Notes under the pieces: model-generated
What the model was told of the DNA's origin: nothing
Databases searched by the model: none
Seen by the model: the letters and a program-made list of their open reading frames with translations, nothing else
Made by a program: the position numbers and the translations under genes
In this document: positions 4,213-38,080 of the stretch, piece by piece
Layout of the letters: the number at the start of each line of letters is the position of its first letter
Numbering within the stretch: position 1 is the first letter of the stretch
Source: a virus
Length of the DNA stretch: 38,378 nt
Direction: 5' to 3' (one strand)
IMG/VR virus record: IMGVR_UViG_3300035193_000016

Positions 4213-4297
4213 AGCCCAGCGGCTTCACGAGAGGATTCGGGGCGTTTACTCTGGGCGCACCGACTCCGTTGCAACTCGTGGGGCTGCTGGGCTTTTT
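4213..4297 (+). terminator. long imperfect hairpin followed by a T5 tract (intrinsic terminator/attenuator candidate)
   Basis: 4213-4231 pairs with 4275-4293 (19 bp including 3 G:U). An inner helix pairs 4233-4240 with 4260-4267. ttttt follows at 4293-4297, a few nt before the methyltransferase SD. Confidence 0.45.
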
Positions 4298-4313
4298 CGT
4301 GGGAGGAGGCCGA

Positions 4314-5366
4314 TTGAAAGTTGAGCACATTGGAGACGCAATACTGTACCTCGGAGACGTTCGGGAGGCTCTCGCATCAATGCCTGGTGAATCCGTTCAG
4401 TGCGTCGTGACAAGCCCGCCATACTGGGGTCTGCGAGACTACAGCGTCGATGGTCAGATCGGACTCGAGTCGACTCCCAATGAATACGTAGAAACGATGG
4501 TTGACGTGTTCCGCGAGGTCCGCCGAGTGCTACGGGATGACGGGACGGTGTGGTTGAATCTTGGCGACTCCTACGCAGGTGGTGGACGAGCAGGCAACAA
4601 TCCGGAGTACATGGGGAAACATAAAATGTTCGGCAAGGACGGGTGGGACGCTGGGATATTTGGACGCCCACAACCTATACCTTACGGCCTCAAACCAAAA
4701 GACCTAATCGGCATCCCGTGGCGCGTAGCATTCGCACTCCAGGCCGACGGGTGGTATCTCCGGCAGGACATCATTTGGCACAAACCAAACCCCATGCCGG
4801 AGAGCGTGCGCGATCGCTGCACGAAGTCGCACGAGTACGTTTTTTTGCTCTCGAAATCGGCACGGTACTACTACGATATCGATGCGCTCAGGGAACCCGT
4901 TATTCCAGATCCGCGCGATGCGTGCTGGGGGACAACTGCAGTCACAAGTAGGCACGGCCATGAGCATGATGCCGAACGAGGGATGATGCAGGGCCGCACA
5001 CAAGCGGAAGGGTTTGTGCGTATGTCAAATCCGCTTGGCAAGAACAAGCGCTCCGTATGGACAGTATCTACCGCCCCCTATTCCGCTGCCCATTTTGCAA
5101 CCTATCCACCCGCACTCATCGAGCCGTGTATACTGGCAGGCAGTCGCCCTGGTGACACGGTGCTCGACCCATTTGGAGGCTCTGGAACCACGGCCGCGGT
5201 CGCGCTCGAACATGGGCGCAAGGCGATATTGATTGAGCTATCCGAGAAGTACGCGGCACTGGTCCCGGATCGTATCCGTAGCATTACCGACGCGATCGAC
5301 CAGATGCGTTTGTTTGACGATCCAAAGCCTGAGCCTATCCAACTCGATTTTGCCGAGGAGGCATAA
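4314..5366 (+). CDS. beta-class DNA methyltransferase (N4-cytosine or N6-adenine), orphan
   Basis: Motif IV TSPPYW precedes motif I DPFGGSGTTA, which is the beta-class order. TTG start at 4314 follows GGAGGAGG (4303-4310). No adjacent restriction enzyme is recognisable. Confidence 0.9.
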   Translation: MKVEHIGDAILYLGDVREALASMPGESVQCVVTSPPYWGLRDYSVDGQIGLESTPNEYVETMVDVFREVRRVLRDDGTVWLNLGDSYAGGGRAGNNPEYMGKHKMFGKDGWDAGIFGRPQPIPYGLKPKDLIGIPWRVAFALQADGWYLRQDIIWHKPNPMPESVRDRCTKSHEYVFLLSKSARYYYDIDALREPVIPDPRDACWGTTAVTSRHGHEHDAERGMMQGRTQAEGFVRMSNPLGKNKRSVWTVSTAPYSAAHFATYPPALIEPCILAGSRPGDTVLDPFGGSGTTAAVALEHGRKAILIELSEKYAALVPDRIRSITDAIDQMRLFDDPKPEPIQLDFAEEA

Positions 5367-7759: not shown

Positions 7760-7939
7760 ATGGAAAAGACAATGACGATCAGGTGCAAGGCATTCGACGG
7801 CGAAGGCGTCCGCACAAATCGCGTGATGGTGGACGACGACGGCACCGTGCGTGTGTACGACAGCGTCGCGGGCTACTACACGACGTGTCACTCGCTCAGT
7901 GAGCGCACGATGCGGCGCATCCGAGCGATGAGTCGGTAG
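7760..7939 (+). CDS. small hypothetical protein (59 aa; absent from the ORF track)
   Basis: GGAGGA at 7747-7752 precedes the ATG at 7760. My translation is MEKTMTIRCKAFDGEGVRTNRVMVDDDGTVRVYDSVAGYYTTCHSLSERTMRRIRAMSR*, followed by a GC hairpin at 7948-7965. Confidence 0.6.
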   Translation: MEKTMTIRCKAFDGEGVRTNRVMVDDDGTVRVYDSVAGYYTTCHSLSERTMRRIRAMSR

Positions 7940-8007
7940 CAGAGGGGCGGGGGCTACGGCCCCCGGTAATGCACAAGCCGGTCCCAAGTCCGGCAGAGGA
8001 GTGAGAG

Positions 8008-8268: not shown

Positions 8269-8385
8269 CGGCAACGGTTACTGCATCACCTGCGGAGCCG
8301 ATGGCCGAGCGTAGGGCAAGGCCGAGCCCCGTGAAACCCGGGGCCGCCCCGAAAGGGGCGCGGCGCTCAACCTACGGAGGATCAG

Positions 8386-9324: not shown

Positions 9325-9396
9325 CATGTTGGAGTCAACCCCATATATGTGGCCGCTGATCGAGCTACTAATCAACCGAGAGCGAGGTGTGTGAGA

Positions 9397-10209
9397 ATGA
9401 GGTATTTGGTCACGGGCGGAACCGGCAGCTTTGGGAGCCGATTTGTTGAACGAGTCATTACGGACGGGCACGAAGCGATAGTGTTTTCGAGGGATGAGCT
9501 CAAGCAGTATGAGATGCGAAAACGCATCACCGGTGCCGAATATGTGATTGGCGATGTTCGCGATAACGCAGCTTTGGAGGAAACCATTAGTCGACGTCGA
9601 TGCAACCGTGTCGTCCACGCCGCAGCACTGAAGCATGTACACACCGGCGAGACTCAGCCATGGGAGTCGGTTAAGACGAATATCATCGGCACGAAAAACG
9701 TAGTTGATGTCTGTGATGATTGGGGATGCGAGCTTGTGTTTCTGTCTACCGACAAGGCCGTTGAACCGGTAAATCTTTACGGCGCAACGAAAATGATAGC
9801 CGAGAGAATCATTCTTGATGCCGGCCAACGGGTTGTAAGGTATGGCAACGTGTTCGGGTCTCGCGGCTCGGTGCTCCACGTATTCGATACGCAGAAGCGG
9901 GACGGCGTGTTTACTATTACCGATCAGCGTATGACGCGGTTTGTGATTACGCTCGATGAGGCGGTTGATTTTGTTCTCAATGCATTCGAAGGCAATACGG
10001 GAACCGTTAGCATCCCAGTTCTTCGGGCTATTCGCATTGTTGATCTTGCAAGAGCTTTCGACCCAACCGCTGAGATACGAGAGATAGGCGTGCAGCCTGG
10101 CGAAAAACTGGCCGAGGTGCTTGGGGATGGTCAGCGATCTGACGAGGCGCCGCTGTTATCGGTTGATGAGATTCGGGAGCTGATCAATGAAACCCTACAC
10201 GATCGTTGA
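9397..10209 (+). CDS. pseB: UDP-GlcNAc 4,6-dehydratase (PseB/FlaA1/CapD family)
   Basis: YLVTGGTGSFG, SRDELKQYEM, IGDVRD, HAAALKHV, KTNIIGTKNV, LSTDKAVEPVNLYGATK, VRYGNVFGSRGSV, ITDQRMTRFVITLDEAV and PGEKLAEV are collinear with FlaA1/PseB motifs as I recall them. ATG at 9397 lies in frame within track ORF 9349... Confidence 0.85.
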   Translation: MRYLVTGGTGSFGSRFVERVITDGHEAIVFSRDELKQYEMRKRITGAEYVIGDVRDNAALEETISRRRCNRVVHAAALKHVHTGETQPWESVKTNIIGTKNVVDVCDDWGCELVFLSTDKAVEPVNLYGATKMIAERIILDAGQRVVRYGNVFGSRGSVLHVFDTQKRDGVFTITDQRMTRFVITLDEAVDFVLNAFEGNTGTVSIPVLRAIRIVDLARAFDPTAEIREIGVQPGEKLAEVLGDGQRSDEAPLLSVDEIRELINETLHDR

Positions 10210-10780
10210 CGCCTTCGAGGAGCGGGTCGCCGAGTATGCCGGAGCTAAGTATGGCGTAGGGGTCAATAGCTGCACCTCTGCAATTATGCTCTCTGCAAAG
10301 TATCGATTTATGCATCGCTACCACACGAGGGCATATCTACCGAGCAGGACGTATGTTGGAGTACCAAACGCGATTATTGCCGCTGGTGGTGAAGTAAATT
10401 TTAAGGACTTTCAATGGTCTGGATGGTACCAGATTCTCCCTCTCGGCATTATCGATAGTGCCCGCAGATTTAGGAAAGGAATGTACAAAGACGGCACGCT
10501 CTATTGCATTTCTTTCCATTGGGGTAAGCATCTCAAAATAGGCACTGGGGGTATGGTTCTTACCGACGATGAGGAGGCATGGAAGGAGTTGAAACGGCTC
10601 AGACATGACGGGAGGACACCGACAATTCACCCGAAACGTGATACAATTGGTTTTGGTTGGCACGTCGGAATGGCTCCAGAAGATGCGGCGAAAGGGCTCA
10701 TGCTCATGCAATATATGCCTGACTACAACGAAGACATTCCATGGGATGACTATCCAGATTGCTCGAGGATATTTTTATGA
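10187..10780 (+). CDS. DegT/DnrJ/EryC1-type PLP sugar aminotransferase, strongly shortened (PseC/LegC-like)
   Basis: FEERVAEYAGAKYGVGVNSCTSAI, IIDSARRF and ISFHWGKHLKIGTGGMVLTDD (PLP-lysine motif SFHxxK) are present. The protein is only 197 aa. Confidence 0.7.
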   Translation: MKPYTIVDAFEERVAEYAGAKYGVGVNSCTSAIMLSAKYRFMHRYHTRAYLPSRTYVGVPNAIIAAGGEVNFKDFQWSGWYQILPLGIIDSARRFRKGMYKDGTLYCISFHWGKHLKIGTGGMVLTDDEEAWKELKRLRHDGRTPTIHPKRDTIGFGWHVGMAPEDAAKGLMLMQYMPDYNEDIPWDDYPDCSRIFL

Positions 10781-10992
10781 GTTGGATAGATGATTCTGTA
10801 TCAAAGGCAATGATTCGAGACACGAAAAAGAAGCTTAAGGCAACCATCATTGATCAATACAACAGACTGATTGAATGCGAATACGATCGCGACGAAGCGG
10901 TAGCGGCAATCAAGGGGCAGATACTGACGATATCACCAGAGCATTGGCCACTTGTAGAACTATGGCTGTCGAAAAAGGAGCGAGGGGAATGA
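10777..10992 (+). CDS. hypothetical 71-aa protein inside the sugar cassette
   Basis: ATG at 10777 overlaps the upstream TGA. No family recognised. Confidence 0.5.
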   Translation: MSWIDDSVSKAMIRDTKKKLKATIIDQYNRLIECEYDRDEAVAAIKGQILTISPEHWPLVELWLSKKERGE

Positions 10993-11591
10993 GTCAATTC
11001 ATTATTGAGTTAGGTTCGGCAAACGAACATCACAACGACATTGGATATCTGCGCGACATGATTGATGCGGTGATCGACTGCGATACAGGCAAGCACAGCA
11101 TTGTCATGAAGCATCAGCTATTCGAGCATGCCGGTGGGAACGAACCGCTCTTGTGGCGCACGTTTGCATGGGCATATGGCTATGCGTGTGAGCGAGGATA
11201 CCCAACAACGGCCAGCGTGTTCGACATCACCTCACTCCATTTCCTTGAACGATTTGACGTGCCGTTTGTCAAGATCGCTTGCGTCCCAAAGCTGTACTGG
11301 CTTGCTCGCAAGACTGACCGTCACGTGTACTTGAGCGTCAATGGCACGTATCCCGAGATAGAAGGCGAGACACACCTTGCATGCGTGCGAAGCTACCCGG
11401 CAGACGCCGCGCAGTACGTGCACAACTTCAGCTCGCTCAAGGTCATCTCAGACCACACCGAAGGCTGGGGCCTTTACAAAAGGTACTTGCCTGTTATCAT
11501 TGAGAAGCACTTTTGCCTCAAACGATCTTCCGACAATCCCGATTCTGGACCGTTCGCGGTTACGCCGAAAGAGCTTGCGGAGGTACTGTGA
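10989..11591 (+). CDS. NeuB/PseI/LegI-type nonulosonic acid synthase, minimal (no SAF domain)
   Basis: IIELGSANEHH, VMKHQLF, FVKIACVP, YLSVNG, ISDHTEGWG and IIEKHFCLKRSSDNPDSGPFAVTPKEL are collinear with NeuB-family motifs. 200 aa. Confidence 0.7.
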   Translation: MSQFIIELGSANEHHNDIGYLRDMIDAVIDCDTGKHSIVMKHQLFEHAGGNEPLLWRTFAWAYGYACERGYPTTASVFDITSLHFLERFDVPFVKIACVPKLYWLARKTDRHVYLSVNGTYPEIEGETHLACVRSYPADAAQYVHNFSSLKVISDHTEGWGLYKRYLPVIIEKHFCLKRSSDNPDSGPFAVTPKELAEVL

Positions 11592-12103
11592 TGAGGATTG
11601 CATTTTGCACCAACAACGAAAACACTCATCCTACCGCACGTTGGCTGCACACCGTCGCCGATGTGGCGATCTATGACGACCATAAGTTGATAGATGATTG
11701 CGACCTGATCGTGAGCTATAACTATCGCTACATTGTTCCAGCAAAGCTGCTGAACAAGTACCCGGCAATCAATCTGCACATGAGTCTGTTGCCGTGGAAT
11801 CGCGGAGCACATCCGATCGTGTGGGCCGCGCGTGAAGGGACTCCGTTCGGCGTCACGATCCACGAGATGACTCCAGCGCTTGATCGAGGGAACATCATCG
11901 CTCAGAGAGAGATACAGATACCCAAAACGTACACGCTCAAACAGGCATATCAACGACACCAAGACGAGATGCTGACGCTGTTGCAGAATACGTGGCAGAG
12001 TATTGTGCAAATGGTCGGGAGTTACCACCATACCGGCCAACTCGGTGATCTCTCAAATGGCTGGGATACTACCATCGAGGAGGTTCGCAATGCTCCGGCT
12101 TGA
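11591..12103 (+). CDS. formyltransferase (Formyl_trans_N-type; sugar N-formyltransferase candidate)
   Basis: IVSYNYRYIVP ... NLHMSLLPWNRGAHPIVWA ... GVTIHEMTPALDRGNII matches the HxSLLPxxRG signature. 170 aa, covering the N-domain only. Confidence 0.7.
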   Translation: MRIAFCTNNENTHPTARWLHTVADVAIYDDHKLIDDCDLIVSYNYRYIVPAKLLNKYPAINLHMSLLPWNRGAHPIVWAAREGTPFGVTIHEMTPALDRGNIIAQREIQIPKTYTLKQAYQRHQDEMLTLLQNTWQSIVQMVGSYHHTGQLGDLSNGWDTTIEEVRNAPA

Positions 12104-12569
12104 ACCACTGAAGCTTGTTCATGCGCTCATGGCGCTTGAGTGGCGTGCAGAGCAGCCGAATTGCCTGAGAACAAGATATCAGATATCAGAAGATGAGCAG
12201 GTGAATTGGTGGAAACAACATCGACAATGGTGGTTTACCATAACGGATGATGGAACACCCATTGGATACACCGGGTTTGGAAGCTTCGGTACCATGCCCG
12301 AGCTGTCGTTTTTGATCACAAAATCAGCATGGGACATCTGGCAAGAGGCATTTGATCTTGTAATCCATAAAGGGATCAAAGCCGACTTTTTCGTCGCCGA
12401 AGTGTACCTTGATTCTGAGACATTGGCGGAATGGACACTTGCCGCACGGCGCTATTCCGCTGGTTCGGTGATTTTTCCAAGGCGAAAAAAAACAAGCGGC
12501 GGCGATTTTGTGGATTCGCTGCTGATTGTATTTAACGGGGAATCATTCGAGGAGAAAGCCGATGCGTAA
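12090..12569 (+). CDS. GNAT-like N-acetyltransferase (PseH-like candidate)
   Basis: MLRLEPL...LEWRAEQPNCLRTRYQISEDEQVNWW resembles the N-terminus of PseH/GNAT proteins. GAGGAGG upstream. The call rests mainly on context. Confidence 0.5.
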   Translation: MLRLEPLKLVHALMALEWRAEQPNCLRTRYQISEDEQVNWWKQHRQWWFTITDDGTPIGYTGFGSFGTMPELSFLITKSAWDIWQEAFDLVIHKGIKADFFVAEVYLDSETLAEWTLAARRYSAGSVIFPRRKKTSGGDFVDSLLIVFNGESFEEKADA

Positions 12570-13176
12570 CGTCTGTATCATCCCGGCGCGGAAAGGATCG
12601 AAGCGGCTGCCTGGGAAGAACCGAATCGAGTTTTTCGGCCGGCCGATTATTCAGAACCCGATAGATGCCGCTGTATCATCCGGATTGTTTGAGCGGATCG
12701 AAGTATCTACCGACGATGAAGCCATGCGCAACATCGTGTTTCCACCCGCTGTGATAAACTGGAGATCGCCCGAGCTCTGTGCCGATGATGTTCCCGATAT
12801 CGATGTTGTGCGTCACTATTGTGACCGACACCGGGATGCAACGTATCTATGTTATCTGTATGCCACCGCTGCGCTTGTGACGCCGGCGCAATTGCTTCGT
12901 GGTCTATCACTGTTGAGGCGATCCGGCGTTGTGAGTACATACTGTTGCGTCGGTCATTCAACTGCCGATGTCGGACAATTTTACTGGTTTGATGTCGCGG
13001 CGATGATATCCAACAAGCTCCAAACCCAAATTGGATTAGTGCTTGACGATCTAGAATGCCAGGACATCAATACTGCCGACGATCTGTGGATTGCTGAACA
13101 GAAGTTGCGGGCGACTCGGAACTACATCACGCTCAAAACACGCGAAGTATCAGATCAGGAAAGTGGGCTGAAGTAA
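12562..13176 (+). CDS. CMP-nonulosonic acid cytidylyltransferase (NeuA/PseF/LegF family)
   Basis: The N-terminal CIIPARKGSKRLPGKN signature is followed by IEVSTDD. GGAGAAAG upstream. Confidence 0.8.
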   Translation: MRNVCIIPARKGSKRLPGKNRIEFFGRPIIQNPIDAAVSSGLFERIEVSTDDEAMRNIVFPPAVINWRSPELCADDVPDIDVVRHYCDRHRDATYLCYLYATAALVTPAQLLRGLSLLRRSGVVSTYCCVGHSTADVGQFYWFDVAAMISNKLQTQIGLVLDDLECQDINTADDLWIAEQKLRATRNYITLKTREVSDQESGLK

Positions 13177-13239: not shown

Positions 13240-14031
13240 ATGGATGAATTTAGGCGGTTATCGCGCCAAATACAGGATATACAGGGCCATAAACGGCTAT
13301 TTTTGGCCTATTCCACGGGCGCCGATGCCACCGCTGCGTGGCTGAGATGTATCGAATCTGACGAATGGGACCCATCCGAGGCCGTACTATACTACTATTA
13401 CCACACGCCTATGTCGTGGACGTGGGAGTACCTTGACTGGTTTGAGGACCATTTTGGCGTCAAGGTAGAACGTGTCCCATCCCACTTGTGCCTTGAATCG
13501 TTAGCGAATTGGTATTTTCAGACACCGGCCAGAGTCGAGGCCATTGTCGAGCTCGCGAAAACACCCCAACACTTCGGGGCGCTCACAAAACAACAGATAC
13601 AGAGGTTTACGGCGTACTGGGCCGGACTGCCGGATACAACGCTTGTCGCACTCGGCGTCAAACAGGGCGACTCCCCAATGCGACGAAAAGCCATGCGCCA
13701 GACTCAGGGGATTAGCCGCAAACAAGGGAAATGGTACCCGATTTGGGACTTTGAAAATCGAGACGCCATTGAGCTCCTGAAGCGGCATAATTGCAAAGTC
13801 CCATATGACTACGAGCTATTCGGAATTACCTTCGAACAACTTGACTACCGCTTTTCAAAAGTGTTGAAAGAACAGTGCCCGAACAATTGGGCGCGCGTGC
13901 TTGATCGATTCCCAATGGCGGAGACGATCATTTCAAGGAGGGAGTACTATCATCCCGATTGGCCGTTGAGGAAGGGCGTGATGTACAAGAAATTCGGCGA
14001 TCTGGTGCTACAGCCAAAGGATCCACTATGA
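13240..14031 (+). CDS. PAPS reductase-like / PP-loop ATPase superfamily protein (degenerate P-loop)
   Basis: LAYSTGADATAA aligns with the SGGxDS PP-loop, VALGVKQGDSPMRRKAMRQ with the GxRxxES-R region, and YPIWDFENRDAIELLKRHNCKVPYDYELF with the P-x-x-W...Y motif region. Confidence 0.5.
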   Translation: MDEFRRLSRQIQDIQGHKRLFLAYSTGADATAAWLRCIESDEWDPSEAVLYYYYHTPMSWTWEYLDWFEDHFGVKVERVPSHLCLESLANWYFQTPARVEAIVELAKTPQHFGALTKQQIQRFTAYWAGLPDTTLVALGVKQGDSPMRRKAMRQTQGISRKQGKWYPIWDFENRDAIELLKRHNCKVPYDYELFGITFEQLDYRFSKVLKEQCPNNWARVLDRFPMAETIISRREYYHPDWPLRKGVMYKKFGDLVLQPKDPL

Positions 14032-18944: not shown

Positions 18945-19835
18945 ATGGGAACGGCTGAATTTCGCCCTGCCATTTGGTCGGCAAATATCATCGTCAACGT
19001 AGAAAAAGCTCTGGTGTTTCGAAACTTCGTGAACACCGACTATGAAGGCGAGATCACTGCGGCCGGGCAGAGCGTAAACATCAATGAAATCGGTGACATC
19101 AACGTCAACGATTATACCGAGGGCACGGACATGACCGTCCAACGCCTTACCGGTGCACAGCGTAAACTAATCGTCGATCAACAGAAGTACTTCAACTTCG
19201 GGGTCGATTCGATCGAGCGACGGCAAGCAAGGGGCAACCTTATTGCGGCCGCGACACAGAAGGCAGGGTTCGCAATCGCGGATACCATAGATCAGTTCAT
19301 TGCAGCCAAGTACACGGATGCAGGAATCACTACCAGTGGGCTCGGGACGTCGAGTTCCAGCCTCTCGCTGTACTCGGTGCATTCCAGCTCCGCGTCGAAT
19401 CTTGCCGGATTTTTCTCGCGGGTTAACCGGTACATGGATCAGGCAAACTGCCCGAGCATGGGTAGGTGGATTGTCATTCCGCCATGGCTGCATTCGTGGA
19501 TCACGTATTCGCAGCTTAGCGACGATTTGACAGTGGGTAACATGGCAGGAATTACGCCGCTACTTGGCACCGGAAACGGATTTGTCGGGTCGCTGGCTGG
19601 TCTTGCTATTTACGCATCGAACAACGTCAGTACGAACGGAAGCACGCAATGGCGCGTAATGTTTGGCACCAACGACGCGATCAGCTATGCGGGTCAGATA
19701 ACTGAAATCAAAAGCGGCCCGATCGAAAAGCAGTTTGGCGAGTTTGTTGCCGGTCTTTACGTCTACGGTGCGAAGGTCGTTCGTCCTGATCGCCTCGGCG
19801 TAGCGTACGTCGATGACGCAGGACTCTCGACGTAA
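18945..19835 (+). CDS. major capsid protein (HK97-fold, P22-coat-like)
   Basis: Position after the scaffold gene, 296 aa, with an N-terminal pattern AIWSANIIVNVEKALVFRNFVNTDYEGEI...GQSVNI. Confidence 0.75.
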   Translation: MGTAEFRPAIWSANIIVNVEKALVFRNFVNTDYEGEITAAGQSVNINEIGDINVNDYTEGTDMTVQRLTGAQRKLIVDQQKYFNFGVDSIERRQARGNLIAAATQKAGFAIADTIDQFIAAKYTDAGITTSGLGTSSSSLSLYSVHSSSASNLAGFFSRVNRYMDQANCPSMGRWIVIPPWLHSWITYSQLSDDLTVGNMAGITPLLGTGNGFVGSLAGLAIYASNNVSTNGSTQWRVMFGTNDAISYAGQITEIKSGPIEKQFGEFVAGLYVYGAKVVRPDRLGVAYVDDAGLST

Positions 19836-19849
19836 GGAGGGTATGGAAC

Positions 19850-20308
19850 ATGGCTGAACGAACAATTGCACCGATGGTCATTGGCCCAGCCGGCAGCACC
19901 GGGCTGCTTGGGCTCATGAAGACCTCTGAATGGCAGACGCTTTCGAGCGCCGACAATGCACACATTGATCTTGACGACACCTCTACCGCGATCCGTGGTG
20001 AGGATGTCATTGTCTTGCTCCACGTTTCAAGCGGTACTACGGCTCCGGGAATCAAGATTCTTACCTCGACCAAAAGCCCTTACACAGGAAGTGGCCAGGC
20101 AGATCAGACCTTTACGTTTTCGGCGGACGTGTCGCTTTCGACTATCGGGTCGAGTGGGAGCGTGATCAAGGGTACCGTGGTCGTGCTCGGGCCGTTTGAG
20201 ACGGCTCGATATAAGGACACCGACGGTTATCTTAACTTCGTCCGATCGACGGGCGATACGGCTGCTGCTGACTACAAGGTCCACGCAATTGTGATCAAGA
20301 GGAAGTAA
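19850..20308 (+). CDS. Ser/Thr/Gly-rich head-associated protein (decoration protein candidate)
   Basis: 152-aa ORF directly after the MCP gene with AAGGAGGG upstream. Beta-rich, Ser/Thr-rich composition and no family recognised. Confidence 0.5.
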   Translation: MAERTIAPMVIGPAGSTGLLGLMKTSEWQTLSSADNAHIDLDDTSTAIRGEDVIVLLHVSSGTTAPGIKILTSTKSPYTGSGQADQTFTFSADVSLSTIGSSGSVIKGTVVVLGPFETARYKDTDGYLNFVRSTGDTAAADYKVHAIVIKRK

Positions 20309-21000
20309 TGGGAGGATCACTTGCAATCCTGGGAACGGCACCAAGCCGTTCCCAGGCTCCATTCCACGATAAGGACATCACGATTTGGGGCGTCAGCGGG
20401 ACGCAAAAGGCGAATGATGTCGAACGTGTGGATGTGTTGTTTGAGCTTCATCCAAAACGGTATTGGGGAATACCCGCGGTCATGGCAAACTTGAAGGAGT
20501 TCGATGGAAATGTTGTGATGCAAGATCACTACGATGATATCCCTAAATCGGTTGCCTATCCGTATAATGAAGTCAAGGAGCGGTTTTATATTCCGGCAAT
20601 GGGAGCAAATCTATATGTGACCAATACGATCACCTGGATGATGCTAAAGGGCATACTTGACGGGTTTGATGACTTCCAATTATACGGCGTCCACATGGAA
20701 CACGAGACCGAGTATGCCTATCAGCAGCCGAACGTTGCATGGGCGGCCGGGATTATCCAGGGGCTCGGGCTGAGATTATATGTTGCCGGCGAGAGTACGC
20801 TTTTGAAGGCCAGATTTGAATACGGATTTCATGAGCCGACTGCTTTAATGCGTGCGATTACTGATCGACAGGAAGCCCTTTCGAACGGCGTAGAACAAGA
20901 GAAGCGGAAGATGACGGCCGCAAAGGAAAACATGCTGCGCACTGAGGGAGCGATGCAGGAGGCTGAGCATTGGCGAAAATACGTAAGCGGGCAGAAGTAA
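20308..21000 (+). CDS. enzyme-like protein, paralogue A (candidate Cst/Maf-type nonulosonic acid transferase)
   Basis: Shares blocks with paralogue B: ILGTAPS.., IWGVSG, VD..FE.HP, MQDHYD, AYP, LYVTNT, YG..ME.E.EY.YQ.PN. The N-terminal strand-Gly-x-x-P-S and the TNT...G(Y/F)DD...YG segments recall GT42/DUF115 folds. Confidence 0.4.
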   Translation: MGGSLAILGTAPSRSQAPFHDKDITIWGVSGTQKANDVERVDVLFELHPKRYWGIPAVMANLKEFDGNVVMQDHYDDIPKSVAYPYNEVKERFYIPAMGANLYVTNTITWMMLKGILDGFDDFQLYGVHMEHETEYAYQQPNVAWAAGIIQGLGLRLYVAGESTLLKARFEYGFHEPTALMRAITDRQEALSNGVEQEKRKMTAAKENMLRTEGAMQEAEHWRKYVSGQK

Positions 21001-21704
21001 AGCGCACCACTGAGAAGCCGGAACGGCCGAAGCTCATCATGCTCGGCACGGCACGAAACCGGGGCGATGCTCCGTTTGACGACGAGAGCGTTGAAATTTG
21101 GGGCGTATCAGGCGTGCTGACCGCGACGGACGTGAAGCGTGTTGATACCATATTCGAGATGCATCCGAGACGGTTTTGGGCTGACGACGCGATTCTGCGC
21201 GTACTAAACGGACACGGCGGAGACGTGTGGATGCAGGATCACTATGATGAGGTTCCCAATTCTCGTGCCTATCCGATAGACGTGGTGCGGAACGCATTCT
21301 ATATGCCTACCATGGGAGACACGCTGTACGTGACGAACACCGTGAGCTACATGCTCGCGATGGCGCTTTTGATGGGATACGATGACATTGAAACGTTCGG
21401 CATATGGATGGAGGCGGAAGGTGAGTACGGCTACCAGCGGCCAAACTGTGAGTTTTTCCTTGGCTACGCCCATGCGATGGGAGTCAAGGTAAAGCTCAAC
21501 GGGGGAGACGTACTTAAAGCCAATTTCCTATACGGGTACGAAGAGCCGAGAATGCTTGCCGCGCTGGTTGAAGAGGGTAAGCAGTTACAGAACGGCATGG
21601 ACGAATTGCAACGCGAACTTGAAGAGACAAAGCGGAGATTCTATCACCAGGAAGGCGGGATCAAGTATAACAAGCAACTGCGAAGGCGGTTTGGGGGCTA
21701 TTGA
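20970..21704 (+). CDS. enzyme-like protein, paralogue B (candidate Cst/Maf-type nonulosonic acid transferase)
   Basis: TTG at 20970 lies 7 nt after AGGAGG (20957-20962). Roughly 40% identical by eye to paralogue A over about 190 aa. C-terminal coiled coil. Confidence 0.4.
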   Translation: MAKIRKRAEVKRTTEKPERPKLIMLGTARNRGDAPFDDESVEIWGVSGVLTATDVKRVDTIFEMHPRRFWADDAILRVLNGHGGDVWMQDHYDEVPNSRAYPIDVVRNAFYMPTMGDTLYVTNTVSYMLAMALLMGYDDIETFGIWMEAEGEYGYQRPNCEFFLGYAHAMGVKVKLNGGDVLKANFLYGYEEPRMLAALVEEGKQLQNGMDELQRELEETKRRFYHQEGGIKYNKQLRRRFGGY

Positions 21705-22294
21705 TGATAGTCACGAGAGCAGAGGTCTTATCACTTACCAGGTACTCGACTTCCGACACCGATGATCTTGCACTTATCGATACGCTTATACCCTATGTGC
21801 AAGAGGACCTTTGTGACTATCTGAACAACTACTTTCATGACTATTACGTGACCTATGTCTCAGGGTCAATCTCGTTTGTAAAGGGTTCTCCGGACACGAT
21901 CACGGATGGAGAATCTGAGTTTGTGAAAAAGCGGTTTGTGGCTGGTCAGGACATTCATGTTGAGAGTGGGACACTCAACGACGGTATCCACGAGCTCGCG
22001 ACGGTTGCCGCAGGAACGTTGACGCTGACCTCGACAAATGAGTTATACAATATCGCGTACGACGACGGCGACTACAATCTTGGCGGTGTCCGGATTTCGG
22101 CAATCGATTGGCCGAAGTCGCTGAAGTTGGTTGCCGCGCGAATGGTGAAGTACTTGCTTGATCGTAGCGACAAAATAGACGGTACGTTGTCTGAGGTTCA
22201 GGACGGAGTATCTCAGAATTATGACAGAGCACGGACGTATCCAAGAGAGATTCTCGGAATGGCTGACAAGTACAAGCGTTTGGAGTTTTGCTGA
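21704..22294 (+). CDS. head-tail connector/adaptor (gp6-like N-terminus)
   Basis: VTRAEVLSLTRYSTSDTDDLALIDTLIPYVQEDLCDYL is typical of gp6-like connector proteins. ATG overlaps the upstream TGA (TGATG). Confidence 0.5.
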   Translation: MIVTRAEVLSLTRYSTSDTDDLALIDTLIPYVQEDLCDYLNNYFHDYYVTYVSGSISFVKGSPDTITDGESEFVKKRFVAGQDIHVESGTLNDGIHELATVAAGTLTLTSTNELYNIAYDDGDYNLGGVRISAIDWPKSLKLVAARMVKYLLDRSDKIDGTLSEVQDGVSQNYDRARTYPREILGMADKYKRLEFC

Positions 22295-23080: not shown

Positions 23081-23749
23081 ATGGCATTAAATAGTGCACA
23101 TGGGTACTTGTATATCGGAGCGGTAAACAGCACGGCCGATACGGCGCCGGCGCTTGATAGCTCGTCGTGGTACTTGATTACCGGAAAGGCGTCAAGTGGG
23201 TCGGCACTGCCGACCAATCTGACAACCGGCATGGTATTCAAGCAGCTCACGAGTGATCTTCCGGTTGACTCGACGGCGGCATTTTCGAGCAACGATGCGG
23301 TAAAGAAAATCACGCTTACAAAAGCGGCATTCGTCACCGATGTCTCGGTTTCCGTCTCAAAGGAAAAGTTCGAGGAAACCGTACAGACCGACGACGTACG
23401 TTCGTACCAGGTATCGAGCAAACCGGAGAAGACCGGTACGATAAGCGGGTATTGGATCGACAACGATTCAAAGCAACGGGAAATCGTGAAAAAGCTCGAT
23501 ACGGTGACCGAGCAAACCACTACCGGTGGAATCACAAAGACCAGTCCGCAAACGTCTATCTTGAGAATGTTCATGTCCAGGGTCGAGTCGAGCGAGGATA
23601 CCGCAGCGGCGCAGGAGATATGGGAGTATCTTCCGGCAATCGTCGAAGGGCTTACCGGTGACAAGCCGATGGAAGGTCCTGAAACGTTTAGCTTCAACTA
23701 CACGGCCCGCGGCGCGGACAAGCCGGCAACGATTTACATCGACGTATGA
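23081..23749 (+). CDS. major tail protein
   Basis: 222 aa, Ser/Thr-rich, immediately upstream of the chaperone pair and tape measure. AGGAGAG precedes the ATG. Confidence 0.6.
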   Translation: MALNSAHGYLYIGAVNSTADTAPALDSSSWYLITGKASSGSALPTNLTTGMVFKQLTSDLPVDSTAAFSSNDAVKKITLTKAAFVTDVSVSVSKEKFEETVQTDDVRSYQVSSKPEKTGTISGYWIDNDSKQREIVKKLDTVTEQTTTGGITKTSPQTSILRMFMSRVESSEDTAAAQEIWEYLPAIVEGLTGDKPMEGPETFSFNYTARGADKPATIYIDV

Positions 23750-36982: not shown

Positions 36983-37221
36983 TTCGCAACGTAGAGGTCG
37001 AGGTCGAGGGCGTCAAACTCAATGTCCAGTGCGATGTCTACAACGATAGGCGCATTCGCCACGACTCGTGGTGGTTTGAGGTTAAGATCACGGTCGACGA
37101 ACACGATGACCTTACGGCGTTGCTCAAACATTTCAGCCATACTGAGCCTTGGGGAGCCTATGACAAGCTCATGGAGCAGATCGAAGCACAGCTTATCGAA
37201 CAGGAGGACTCCCATGGCTGA
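36979..37221 (+). CDS. hypothetical protein
   Basis: 80-aa ORF with an ATGA overlap upstream. Confidence 0.5.
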   Translation: MIRNVEVEVEGVKLNVQCDVYNDRRIRHDSWWFEVKITVDEHDDLTALLKHFSHTEPWGAYDKLMEQIEAQLIEQEDSHG

Positions 37222-38080
37222 CAATCAACTGGATTTGAACGAAGAGCAAGAAGCCGAGGCAGTCGTGGCCCGCATAGATGAGGCGCTCACATCGATCGAG
37301 GACGAGTCCCGTGGTGTGGTGGTGCGCAAGCGTTCGGAGGTTGCGGAACCGAATCATGGATCTGTCGACGCGCTCATTGAGCTCGCTATCTCGCGCGATG
37401 CTGACATGGATAAGCTCGAGCGGCTGATTGCGCTCAAAGATCAACAGGAGGCGAAGCAGGCGAAAGCAGAATTCGATCGGCACTTCGCCGAGATGCAATC
37501 CGCCCTTTCTCGCCTTGGGCCGGCACCTCGCAGCAAGAAAGGCGAGAAGGGGATGTACGCGCCGATCGAGGTGTTGTCAAGACATTACAGCAAGACGATA
37601 TCAGATCACGGATTCGCATTCCGGTTCTACGAGGAGCCGATCGAGGACGGCAGGCTCGAGGTGTTCTGCGACGTATCCGGCTACGGGCACACGCGAACCA
37701 ATTCGAAGATCATGCCTGTGTACGAGCCCGAGAAGTCATCCGGAGGACGGCCCATTCAGAACGTACTGCAAGCCGAGGGGGTGCGATCGACCTACGGACA
37801 GCGTTACGCATTTATCGCGGCGTTTGGTCTCGTAAGCGAGGAAAACGACACCGACGGAGAGCCCGATTTCTCGTGGCTGGATGGCGTCAAGTACGCGGAG
37901 TATATCAACGCAATCGAGGCGCAAACGACGATCGAGGATGCCAGGGCTGCTGGGCGCGACGCATACAAGGCTCTGGAGGAACAGCACGACGAGCGCGGCA
38001 TGGCGATGATCACGCAAGTGACCACCGCTCACAAAAAATATCTCGCGACCAAGAACGGGGTTGACGATGCGAATCGTTGA
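37214..38080 (+). CDS. erf: ERF-family single-strand annealing protein
   Basis: The ATG at 37214 follows CAGGAGG. MYAPIEVLSRHYSKTISDHGF and QAEGVRSTYGQRYAFIAAFGLVSEENDTDGE match the ERF core and its conserved G-S-x-x-TYxxRY...G...D-D region. Confidence 0.7.
   Translation: MADNQLDLNEEQEAEAVVARIDEALTSIEDESRGVVVRKRSEVAEPNHGSVDALIELAISRDADMDKLERLIALKDQQEAKQAKAEFDRHFAEMQSALSRLGPAPRSKKGEKGMYAPIEVLSRHYSKTISDHGFAFRFYEEPIEDGRLEVFCDVSGYGHTRTNSKIMPVYEPEKSSGGRPIQNVLQAEGVRSTYGQRYAFIAAFGLVSEENDTDGEPDFSWLDGVKYAEYINAIEAQTTIEDARAAGRDAYKALEEQHDERGMAMITQVTTAHKKYLATKNGVDDANR

Follow-up and report, generated by a model that had tools for sequence, protein, structure and literature searches.

This analysis concerns two neighbouring genes, here called paralogues A and B, in the head module of a viral DNA of 38,378 nucleotides (nt), IMG/VR record IMGVR_UViG_3300035193_000016; the whole stretch that was analysed is referred to below as the window. 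An earlier note on this DNA had proposed that the two genes encode transferases of nonulosonic acids, which are sialic-acid-like sugars, and that they glycosylate the virion. The genes at the locus are the following (aa, amino acids; E, expectation value; CMP, cytidine monophosphate):

18945-19835 (+): major capsid protein (phrog_267, E 1e-52; Pfam Phage_capsid_4, PF25209, E 3.6e-13)
19850-20308 (+): 152-aa protein, rich in Ser/Thr and mostly beta; may be a capsid decoration protein and an acceptor
20308-21000 (+): paralogue A, 230 aa, ATG start, putative CMP-nonulosonate transferase with a predicted minimal Cst-II/Maf fold
20970-21704 (+): paralogue B, 244 aa, TTG start, same family as A but a separate, old clade
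21701-22294 (+): head-tail adaptor-like protein (phrog_1236, phrog_1161), the conserved downstream boundary of the module

On the 5' side of the capsid gene the window carries an SPP1-type portal, a MuF-like protein and a scaffold, in this order, and on the 3' side of the paralogues the head-tail adaptor is followed by the neck proteins and by the putative gene for the major tail protein (23081-23749). Ser and Thr make up 24% of the 152-aa protein, as against 7-12% for enzymes in the window, and the description of a major capsid gene and a Ser/Thr-rich protein directly 5' of the paralogues was therefore correct. The genes for A and B overlap by 31 nt, which suggests translational coupling, and AGGAGG stands 5' of the TTG start of B. 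Aligned with BLASTP, the two proteins are 40% identical across 225 residues (E 1e-66), far above chance, in agreement with the tandem paralogy, the coordinates and the identity of roughly 40% that had been estimated by eye. An Rfam scan of 19850-21704 detected no RNA element, and the minus-strand open reading frames (ORFs) of this interval, short stretches that overlap with the conserved genes of the plus strand, were taken to be shadow ORFs.

All the motifs that had been listed as shared by the two proteins (ILGTAPS/MLGTARN, IWGVSG, VDxxFExHP, MQDHYD, AYP, LYVTNT, G(F/Y)DD...YG..ME and EYxYQxPN) are found in the A/B alignment, and the majority of them are kept across 57 homologues. The alignment of these 57 sequences (A1) contains 12 invariant residues, P18, W27, E46, H48, P85, G127, M130, E135, Q139, Y172, G173 and G214, all of which B retains; G9 is also invariant in A1, with a conservation of at least 90% at T10 and A11. 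When 84 sequences with 24-71% identity to A are compared, G9, W27, H48, P85, G127, E135 and Y172 are invariant, again with all of them present in B. H48 and E135 are the sole polar residues that are invariant family-wide. Judged from these alignments, the conservation pattern of the family looks enzymatic.

The family is large. A word-indexed search returned 101 homologues, none with a Pfam domain, while an exhaustive profile search at E<=1e-3 brought the count to at least 4,856 clusters (50% identity), almost all from uncultured phages; 3,675 of the clusters have E<=1e-10. Searching A and B with phmmer against the sequences of the PDB gave nothing real: the designed-ankyrin matches of B (E 0.002-1) and a CppA match of A (E 0.75) are short, and were discarded as chance or compositional.

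Predicted fold and remote homology

We built an AlphaFold2 model of A with the 57-sequence alignment (predicted local distance difference test score, pLDDT, 93.3; predicted template-modelling score, pTM, 0.78). It consists of an alpha/beta core (residues 1-178) and a single 49-residue helix (179-227). Where a coiled coil had been described at the end of each paralogue, the model predicts one long helix for A. In a Foldseek search of the PDB with this model the 12 best matches are all Cst-II, a sialyltransferase of family GT42 (E 4.3e-6 to 1.3e-4, probability 1.0, template-modelling (TM) score ~0.5), and the 13th is the Maf glycosyltransferase 5mu5 (E 7.2e-3, probability 0.99). Against viral models, the search gave uncharacterised phage proteins first and then MptE-like/DUF115 proteins (E 5e-5 to 1e-3). 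The fold similarity to nonulosonic-acid transferases of the Cst, Maf and DUF115 types, which the earlier note had pointed out from sequence segments, is therefore borne out by the model.

The family was also compared with GT42 by profile-profile alignment (hhalign), using a GT42 profile of 41 sequences, with the Cst-II sequence confirmed against 1ro7. The two profiles aligned with E 1.5e-4 and, when a more diverse family alignment was used, with E 6.5e-6 and 85% probability. In this alignment the first strand and the G9-T10-A11-x-S13 loop of the A family are set on the G-N-G-P-S of Cst-II, the motif being degenerate rather than identical; the TNT...M helix of the family is set on ITSG.YM, and its G(Y/F).D..LYGVHM segment on GYKEIYLSGIDF. 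A Y136 is paired with Cst-II Y162, and Cst-II Y156 falls on A E131, a non-conserved position. Both of the segments that had been pointed out as Cst-like, the N-terminal strand with its Gly loop and the TNT...M...G(Y/F)(D/T)D..L.G stretch, are thus placed on the matching elements of Cst-II.

Sub-threshold matches point to the same proteins, since the commonest Pfam families seen in this way among the 84 members are PF01973 MptE-like (6 members) and PF06002 CST-I (4 members). The best PDB profile match is likewise a GT42 sialyltransferase, at the LYVTNT...GY.DI.LYGVHM motif, although it is not significant. Three independent approaches, fold search, profile-profile alignment and sub-threshold Pfam matches, therefore agree on the superfamily, and we regard the assignment of A and B to the Cst-II/Maf fold and superfamily as highly probable.

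A clue to the functional centre of these proteins comes from four family members (P0132, P0135, P0155 and P0187; 441-548 aa) that are interrupted by intein-like insertions; these show Cys1, His-Asn at the C-terminus and Ser/Thr at +1, and in three of the four also a LAGLIDADG-like block. The insertions occur at two points, one directly in front of the invariant E135-Y136 and the other directly behind it. Inteins usually occupy catalytic or ligand-binding motifs, and these sites may mark E135-Y136 as the centre of function in the family.

The sugar cassette and the relatives of the locus

The CMP-sugar cassette that had been placed 7-11 kb upstream of the paralogues is present, with PseB-, PseC-, PseI/NeuB- and PseF-like genes and a formyltransferase (UDP-GlcNAc, uridine diphosphate-N-acetylglucosamine; Pse, pseudaminic acid):

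9349-10209 (+): PseB-like UDP-GlcNAc 4,6-dehydratase, first step of a Pse-type pathway (PF02719, E 9.6e-71; TIGR03589, E 4.3e-76, below the equivalog cut-off)
10187-10780 (+): PseC-like (DegT family) aminotransferase, 197 aa (PF01041, E 4.6e-19; TIGR03588, E 4.9e-14)
10875-11591 (+): PseI/NeuB-like nonulosonic acid synthase, 238 aa (PF03102, E 1.7e-8; TIGR03586 PseI, E 4.7e-8)
11513-12103 (+): formyltransferase (matches the NCBIfam models for sugar formyltransferase and fmt, E 2e-19 to 1e-15)
12003-12569 (+): 188-aa ORF with no Pfam, NCBIfam or PHROGs match
12526-13176 (+): PseF-like CMP-nonulosonate synthetase (cytidylyltransferase), the presumed source of the activated donor (PF02348, E 1.7e-18; TIGR03584, E 2.4e-35)
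Relative L020, 446-1048 and 1305-1943: short PseC-like (200 aa) and NeuB-like (212 aa) counterparts
Relative L082, 47-697 and 694-1308: short PseC-like (216 aa) and NeuB-like (204 aa) counterparts

The formyltransferase, which could yield an N-formylated sugar, is matched by a Formyl_trans_N domain at the same cassette position in L020 and L082. The positional counterparts of the 188-aa ORF in L020, L023, L024, L025 and L082 match Acetyltransf_3, and the cassette probably includes an acetyltransferase. Between the cytidylyltransferase and the small terminase lies a 263-aa ORF (13240-14031, +) that was considered as a PseG or an extra transferase and rejected, as it resembles 3'-phosphoadenosine-5'-phosphosulfate (PAPS) reductases (phrog_2302, E 5e-14) and matches nothing in Pfam or the PDB. 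About 1 kb upstream of the cassette there are two self-cleaving ribozymes of different types, ~300 nt apart and both above the Rfam gathering score: a type-P5 twister (7938-7993, +; 61 bits, E 1.9e-10) and a twister-sister (8309-8379, +; 54 bits, E 1.3e-9).

We compared the window with 19 viral loci, 52 metagenome loci (nearly all below 7.5 kb, with a single 20-kb locus, L072) and 11 contigs from an exact-protein look-up. In ~80 loci the capsid gene is followed by a small Ser/Thr-rich ORF, then by one or two transferases and the adaptor, and in the conserved order of the relatives portal, MuF and scaffold precede the capsid gene. In 38 of the 39 loci in which the interval is visible, an ORF of 120-170 aa lies between the capsid gene and the transferase, with a mean Ser+Thr content of 21% (9-12% in the enzymes and packaging proteins). 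In ten loci the sequence extends ~1 kb or more upstream of the terminase genes (window, L003, L016, L020, L022, L023, L024, L025, L072 and L082), and each of the ten has nonulosonic-acid pathway genes there, in keeping with the suggestion that the paralogues co-occur with such cassettes in related phages; the cytidylyltransferase was found in every locus covering its region.

A neighbour-joining tree places the B clade as sister of the A clade, and a B type invariably stands in the downstream position. Among more remote loci there is a group with a different conserved pair of transferase subtypes, so that the two-copy state exists in at least two lineages. Distinct conserved subtypes in two-copy loci argue for sub-functionalisation, and not for a recent redundant duplication.

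Further collections yielded few additional long contexts. A collection of cultured phages (50,697 records) yielded one distant match and none of this clade, namely a protein of Microcystis phage Mvi-Yong1342-1 (PP496355.1, 34781-35584; 19899-20702 in our numbering of locus L027) that is 26% identical to A (E 1e-14). Its gene is annotated as a 'type 11 methyltransferase', for which the family's Cst/Maf-like fold gives no support. A scan of a genome collection gave a single 4-kb contig, from a Rhodobacterales metagenome-assembled genome, which is a weak hint to the host.

The 152-aa protein itself has only 7 homologues, and its AlphaFold model is poor (pLDDT 54.5). The best fold match of this model, a capsid turret of Haloferax tailed virus 1, was set aside as not significant (E 0.04, probability 0.75). 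As for other features of the window, there is a tRNA-like gene at 2810-2881 (+; Rfam 52.9 bits), which ARAGORN lists as 'tRNA-???' while placing a two-base anticodon (gt) at position 33; since ARAGORN assigns no anticodon, the anticodon loop is irregular. A DNA N6/N4 methyltransferase (4269-5366, +; PF01555, E 1.8e-52) and an ERF-family recombinase (37022-38080, +; E 1e-8) were also identified. The window is as long as the longest contig on record for protein A; it is therefore probably the entire contig, and may be a near-complete phage genome.

Proposed mechanism and its alternatives

Building on the paralogy, the predicted fold, the remote homology, the conserved synteny and the cassette linkage described above, we propose the following mechanism. 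In the infected cell, the phage cassette would make a CMP-activated, pseudaminic-acid-like 5,7-diamino nonulosonic acid, which may be N-formylated. A and B, which have no evident membrane-binding segment, would be expressed from the late structural operon and would hold the CMP-sugar through the N-terminal strand with its G-T-A-x-S loop and through the TNT...GVHM...EY loop, with H48 and E135 as the likeliest catalytic or phosphate-binding residues. They would then move the sugar to Ser/Thr, or to a sugar already attached, on virion proteins assembling in the cytoplasm, in the manner of Maf. The acceptors would be the small Ser/Thr-rich protein just upstream, the Ser-rich capsid loop, or both; the two paralogues probably divide the work by acceptor protein, site or linkage, and the charged C-terminal helix probably serves oligomerisation or acceptor docking. 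The GT42/Maf-type transferase reading of the earlier note is supported by the fold, the profile-profile alignment and the co-occurrence with the cassette, and we lean towards the full mechanism, that is, towards A and B being minimal CMP-nonulosonate transferases that would modify virion proteins.

Several observations weigh against this proposal. A and B have no match in Pfam (none at E<=1), PHROGs or NCBIfam. PF06002 is not significantly matched (1 of 57 members, best E 0.11; 4 of 84, best E 0.011), nor is PF01973, which gave no match for A or B and sub-threshold ones for 6 of 84 members (best E 0.038). The TM-scores of A against its PDB matches are only ~0.5, and the Foldseek matches at ranks 15-45 include non-glycosyltransferases of the same superfold (pterin/thiamin pyrophosphokinases and SteA). 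In Cst-II, His188 is the catalytic base (PMC4202792); for it and for the lid (155-188) the hhalign comparison with GT42 found no alignable counterpart in the A/B family, and this alignment is unreliable beyond residue ~142, with -mact 0.05 or -glob giving zero-confidence columns. The invariant E135 or H48 may stand in for His188. A comparison by eye sets RLYVAGESTLL in A beside the similar KLYCLCPNSLL in Cst-II, and E135 would then come to lie near His188, but this is a lead only. With no significant GT42 or Maf sequence match, and with the lid and the Maf flanking domains missing, A and B form a distinct minimal branch outside GT42 and Maf.

The cassette raises further points of the same kind. 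The best-scoring NCBIfam models of its enzymes are the pseudaminic-acid ones, and all scores lie under the NCBI equivalog cut-offs. The PseC-like proteins have 197-216 aa and the NeuB/PseI-like proteins 204-238 aa across the window, L020 and L082, as compared with ~380 aa for PseC and ~330 aa for NeuB/PseI in bacteria, and no PseG-like hydrolase was found. The completeness of the pathway and the identity of the sugar are therefore uncertain. However, the short forms are kept across related phages, an argument for function, and may thus represent miniaturised enzymes and not pseudogenes.

The relatives add to this list. Most of them have one transferase, and about a quarter of the loci with the interval visible have two in tandem. 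The distant member in the Microcystis phage sits before the small terminase, in a complete genome without an annotated sugar-nucleotide pathway; another, at 10001-10720 of a 115-kb contig (L026), adjoins a methyltransferase and lies upstream of a 1,604-aa portal-MuF fusion, and a third (L085, 9643-10299) belongs to a podovirus-like structural module with a P22-type portal and an SU10-type adaptor. All the same, these distant members are still within or beside structural or packaging modules. Finally, Ser/Thr richness is weak evidence for an acceptor, as it is common in surface beta proteins.

Two alternatives deal with what the enzymes do, and we consider both unlikely. According to the first, A and B are transferases of CMP-nonulosonates acting on a host acceptor (flagellin, a lipid-linked precursor of lipopolysaccharide or capsule, or another protein), with a change of the cell surface (superinfection exclusion, receptor masking) or a takeover of host functions as the outcome. 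The closest folds fit this, since Maf modifies flagellin and Cst-II modifies lipo-oligosaccharide, and phages are documented to encode enzymes by which the nonulosonic-acid glycans of the host are altered (PMC12053666, PMC6586298). The phage may also be temperate, given the ERF recombinase in the window and an integrase in the relative L024. On the other hand, the genes stand on the structural strand between capsid and adaptor in ~80 loci, a poor site for expression in a lysogen, and promoter- or terminator-like sites are not enriched in 8.5-24.5 kb. The C-terminal helix, moreover, is highly charged and not amphipathic, unlike a membrane-binding tail for a lipid-linked acceptor, and a small Ser/Thr-rich ORF is consistently adjacent.

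The second denies that A and B are glycosyltransferases: the MptE-like/Rossmann-type superfold would be used for another group transfer (pyrophosphokinase-like or nucleotidyl) or for a non-catalytic role in head assembly or completion, and the link with the cassette would be hitch-hiking within a lineage. The lack of a curated family match, the presence of SteA and thiamin pyrophosphokinases in the fold search and the missing counterpart of His188 and lid are all compatible with it. So are the distant member in a phage without an annotated sugar pathway and the fact that the ten cassette-bearing loci are related phages sharing one genome plan, and hence not independent observations. Against it, the Foldseek E of Cst-II (4e-6) is about four orders better than that of any pyrophosphokinase (best 0.2), with SteA intermediate (0.03), and the profile-profile homology is specifically to GT42. 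Catalysis is favoured by the polar residues that are invariant and by the intein insertions at the conserved loop, and a genome with the means to produce a CMP-sugar requires a transferase, for which no other candidate was detected, there being no other glycosyltransferase domain (Pfam or PHROGs) among the window ORFs scanned.

Less likely still is that A and B act on the virion with a different donor, such as host CMP-Kdo (3-deoxy-D-manno-octulosonate), CMP-Neu5Ac (N-acetylneuraminic acid) or CMP-legionaminic acid, while the cassette is otherwise used or partly decayed: the sub-cut-off scores, the two enzymes truncated relative to bacterial ones and the missing PseG would agree with this, as would the considerable donor promiscuity of the Clostridium botulinum Maf, which uses Neu5Ac and Kdo (PMC11339370), but the short forms conserved in L020 and L082 argue for function, and a cytidylyltransferase is present in every locus that covers its region.

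Returning to virion glycosylation with the phage's own sugar, the likeliest acceptor would be the adjacent Ser/Thr-rich protein; alternatives would be the Ser-rich segment of the major capsid protein (TSGLGTSSSSLSLYSVHSSS, residues ~130-149) and a Ser/Thr-rich tail protein. Tentatively, and with less confidence than for the mechanism as such, we put forward a wider picture: a widespread, uncultured lineage of aquatic siphoviruses would O-glycosylate its capsid or decoration proteins with a self-made CMP-Pse-like sugar, by means of a hitherto unrecognised family of minimal, lid-less transferases of the Cst/Maf fold, each paralogue, where there are two, having its own acceptor or linkage, and this would be the first phage particle carrying nonulosonic acid.

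Nonulosonic acids on bacteria govern motility, immune evasion and phage recognition. If the picture is true, sialic-acid-like sugars would join the known chemistry of phage particles, and a very large phage family without annotation (at least 4,856 clusters and no Pfam, PHROGs or NCBIfam model) would acquire a function. It would also provide a stripped-down catalytic core for the GT42/Maf superfamily, maybe useful for glyco-engineering, and would explain why small phage genomes keep a costly 4-kb sugar pathway. A negatively charged coat could alter the adhesion, aggregation and decay of virions in water, as well as their evasion of recognition by hosts or grazers. A full-text literature search found no report of a phage virion modified with nonulosonic acid, nor of the A/B family.

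Comparison with known systems

The best structural and the best profile-profile match of A and B are the GT42 enzymes Cst-I/Cst-II of Campylobacter jejuni (PF06002). Cst-II and A/B have in common an N-terminal strand with a glycine-rich loop ending in Ser, a helix after a T-N-T/T-S-G turn, and a G-(V/I)-x-(M/F) strand with a conserved Tyr behind it (Y136 in A, Y162 in Cst-II). CMP-activated acidic sugars of nine carbons are the expected donors of both, which for A/B is based on the linkage to the cassette. They differ in that the lid and His188 of Cst-II are missing or unplaced in A/B, which also lack a significant PF06002 match, and in that the charged 49-residue C-terminal helix of A/B takes the place of the membrane-association region of Cst-II. 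The acceptor of the Cst enzymes is lipo-oligosaccharide, whereas a protein is proposed for A/B.

The Maf flagellin glycosyltransferases (PF01973, Maf_flag10/MptE-like) are the second-best fold match in the PDB, through a central domain as in 5mu5. Maf is a three-domain protein whose central domain resembles Cst-II (PMC11339370). With 230-244 aa, compared with 632 residues in the 5mu5 chain, A and B would correspond to this central domain plus one helix, without the N- and C-terminal acceptor-recognition domains. Like Maf, they are genetically linked to genes for the biosynthesis of pseudaminic or legionaminic acid (in 10 of 10 loci for A/B), and they are predicted to be cytoplasmic, as Maf is. 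Maf O-glycosylates Ser/Thr of flagellin before assembly and export. For A/B this mode of action is proposed as well, with a phage protein as the acceptor instead of flagellin.

Among phages, the closest parallel is found in mycobacteriophages, for example those of cluster F, in which glycosyltransferase genes are linked to capsid genes and the capsid is the suggested target (mentioned in PMC11256854). In both cases the phage transferase genes lie in or next to the capsid genes. The mycobacteriophage systems employ conventional glycosyltransferases and host sugar nucleotides, and their glycans are of the hexose type. In contrast, the window combines an enzyme fold like that of GT42/Maf with a phage-encoded nonulosonic-acid pathway. 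Since virion glycosylation in mycobacteriophages and same-fold transferases in bacteria are both known, what would be new here is their combination, on a large family that has no annotation.

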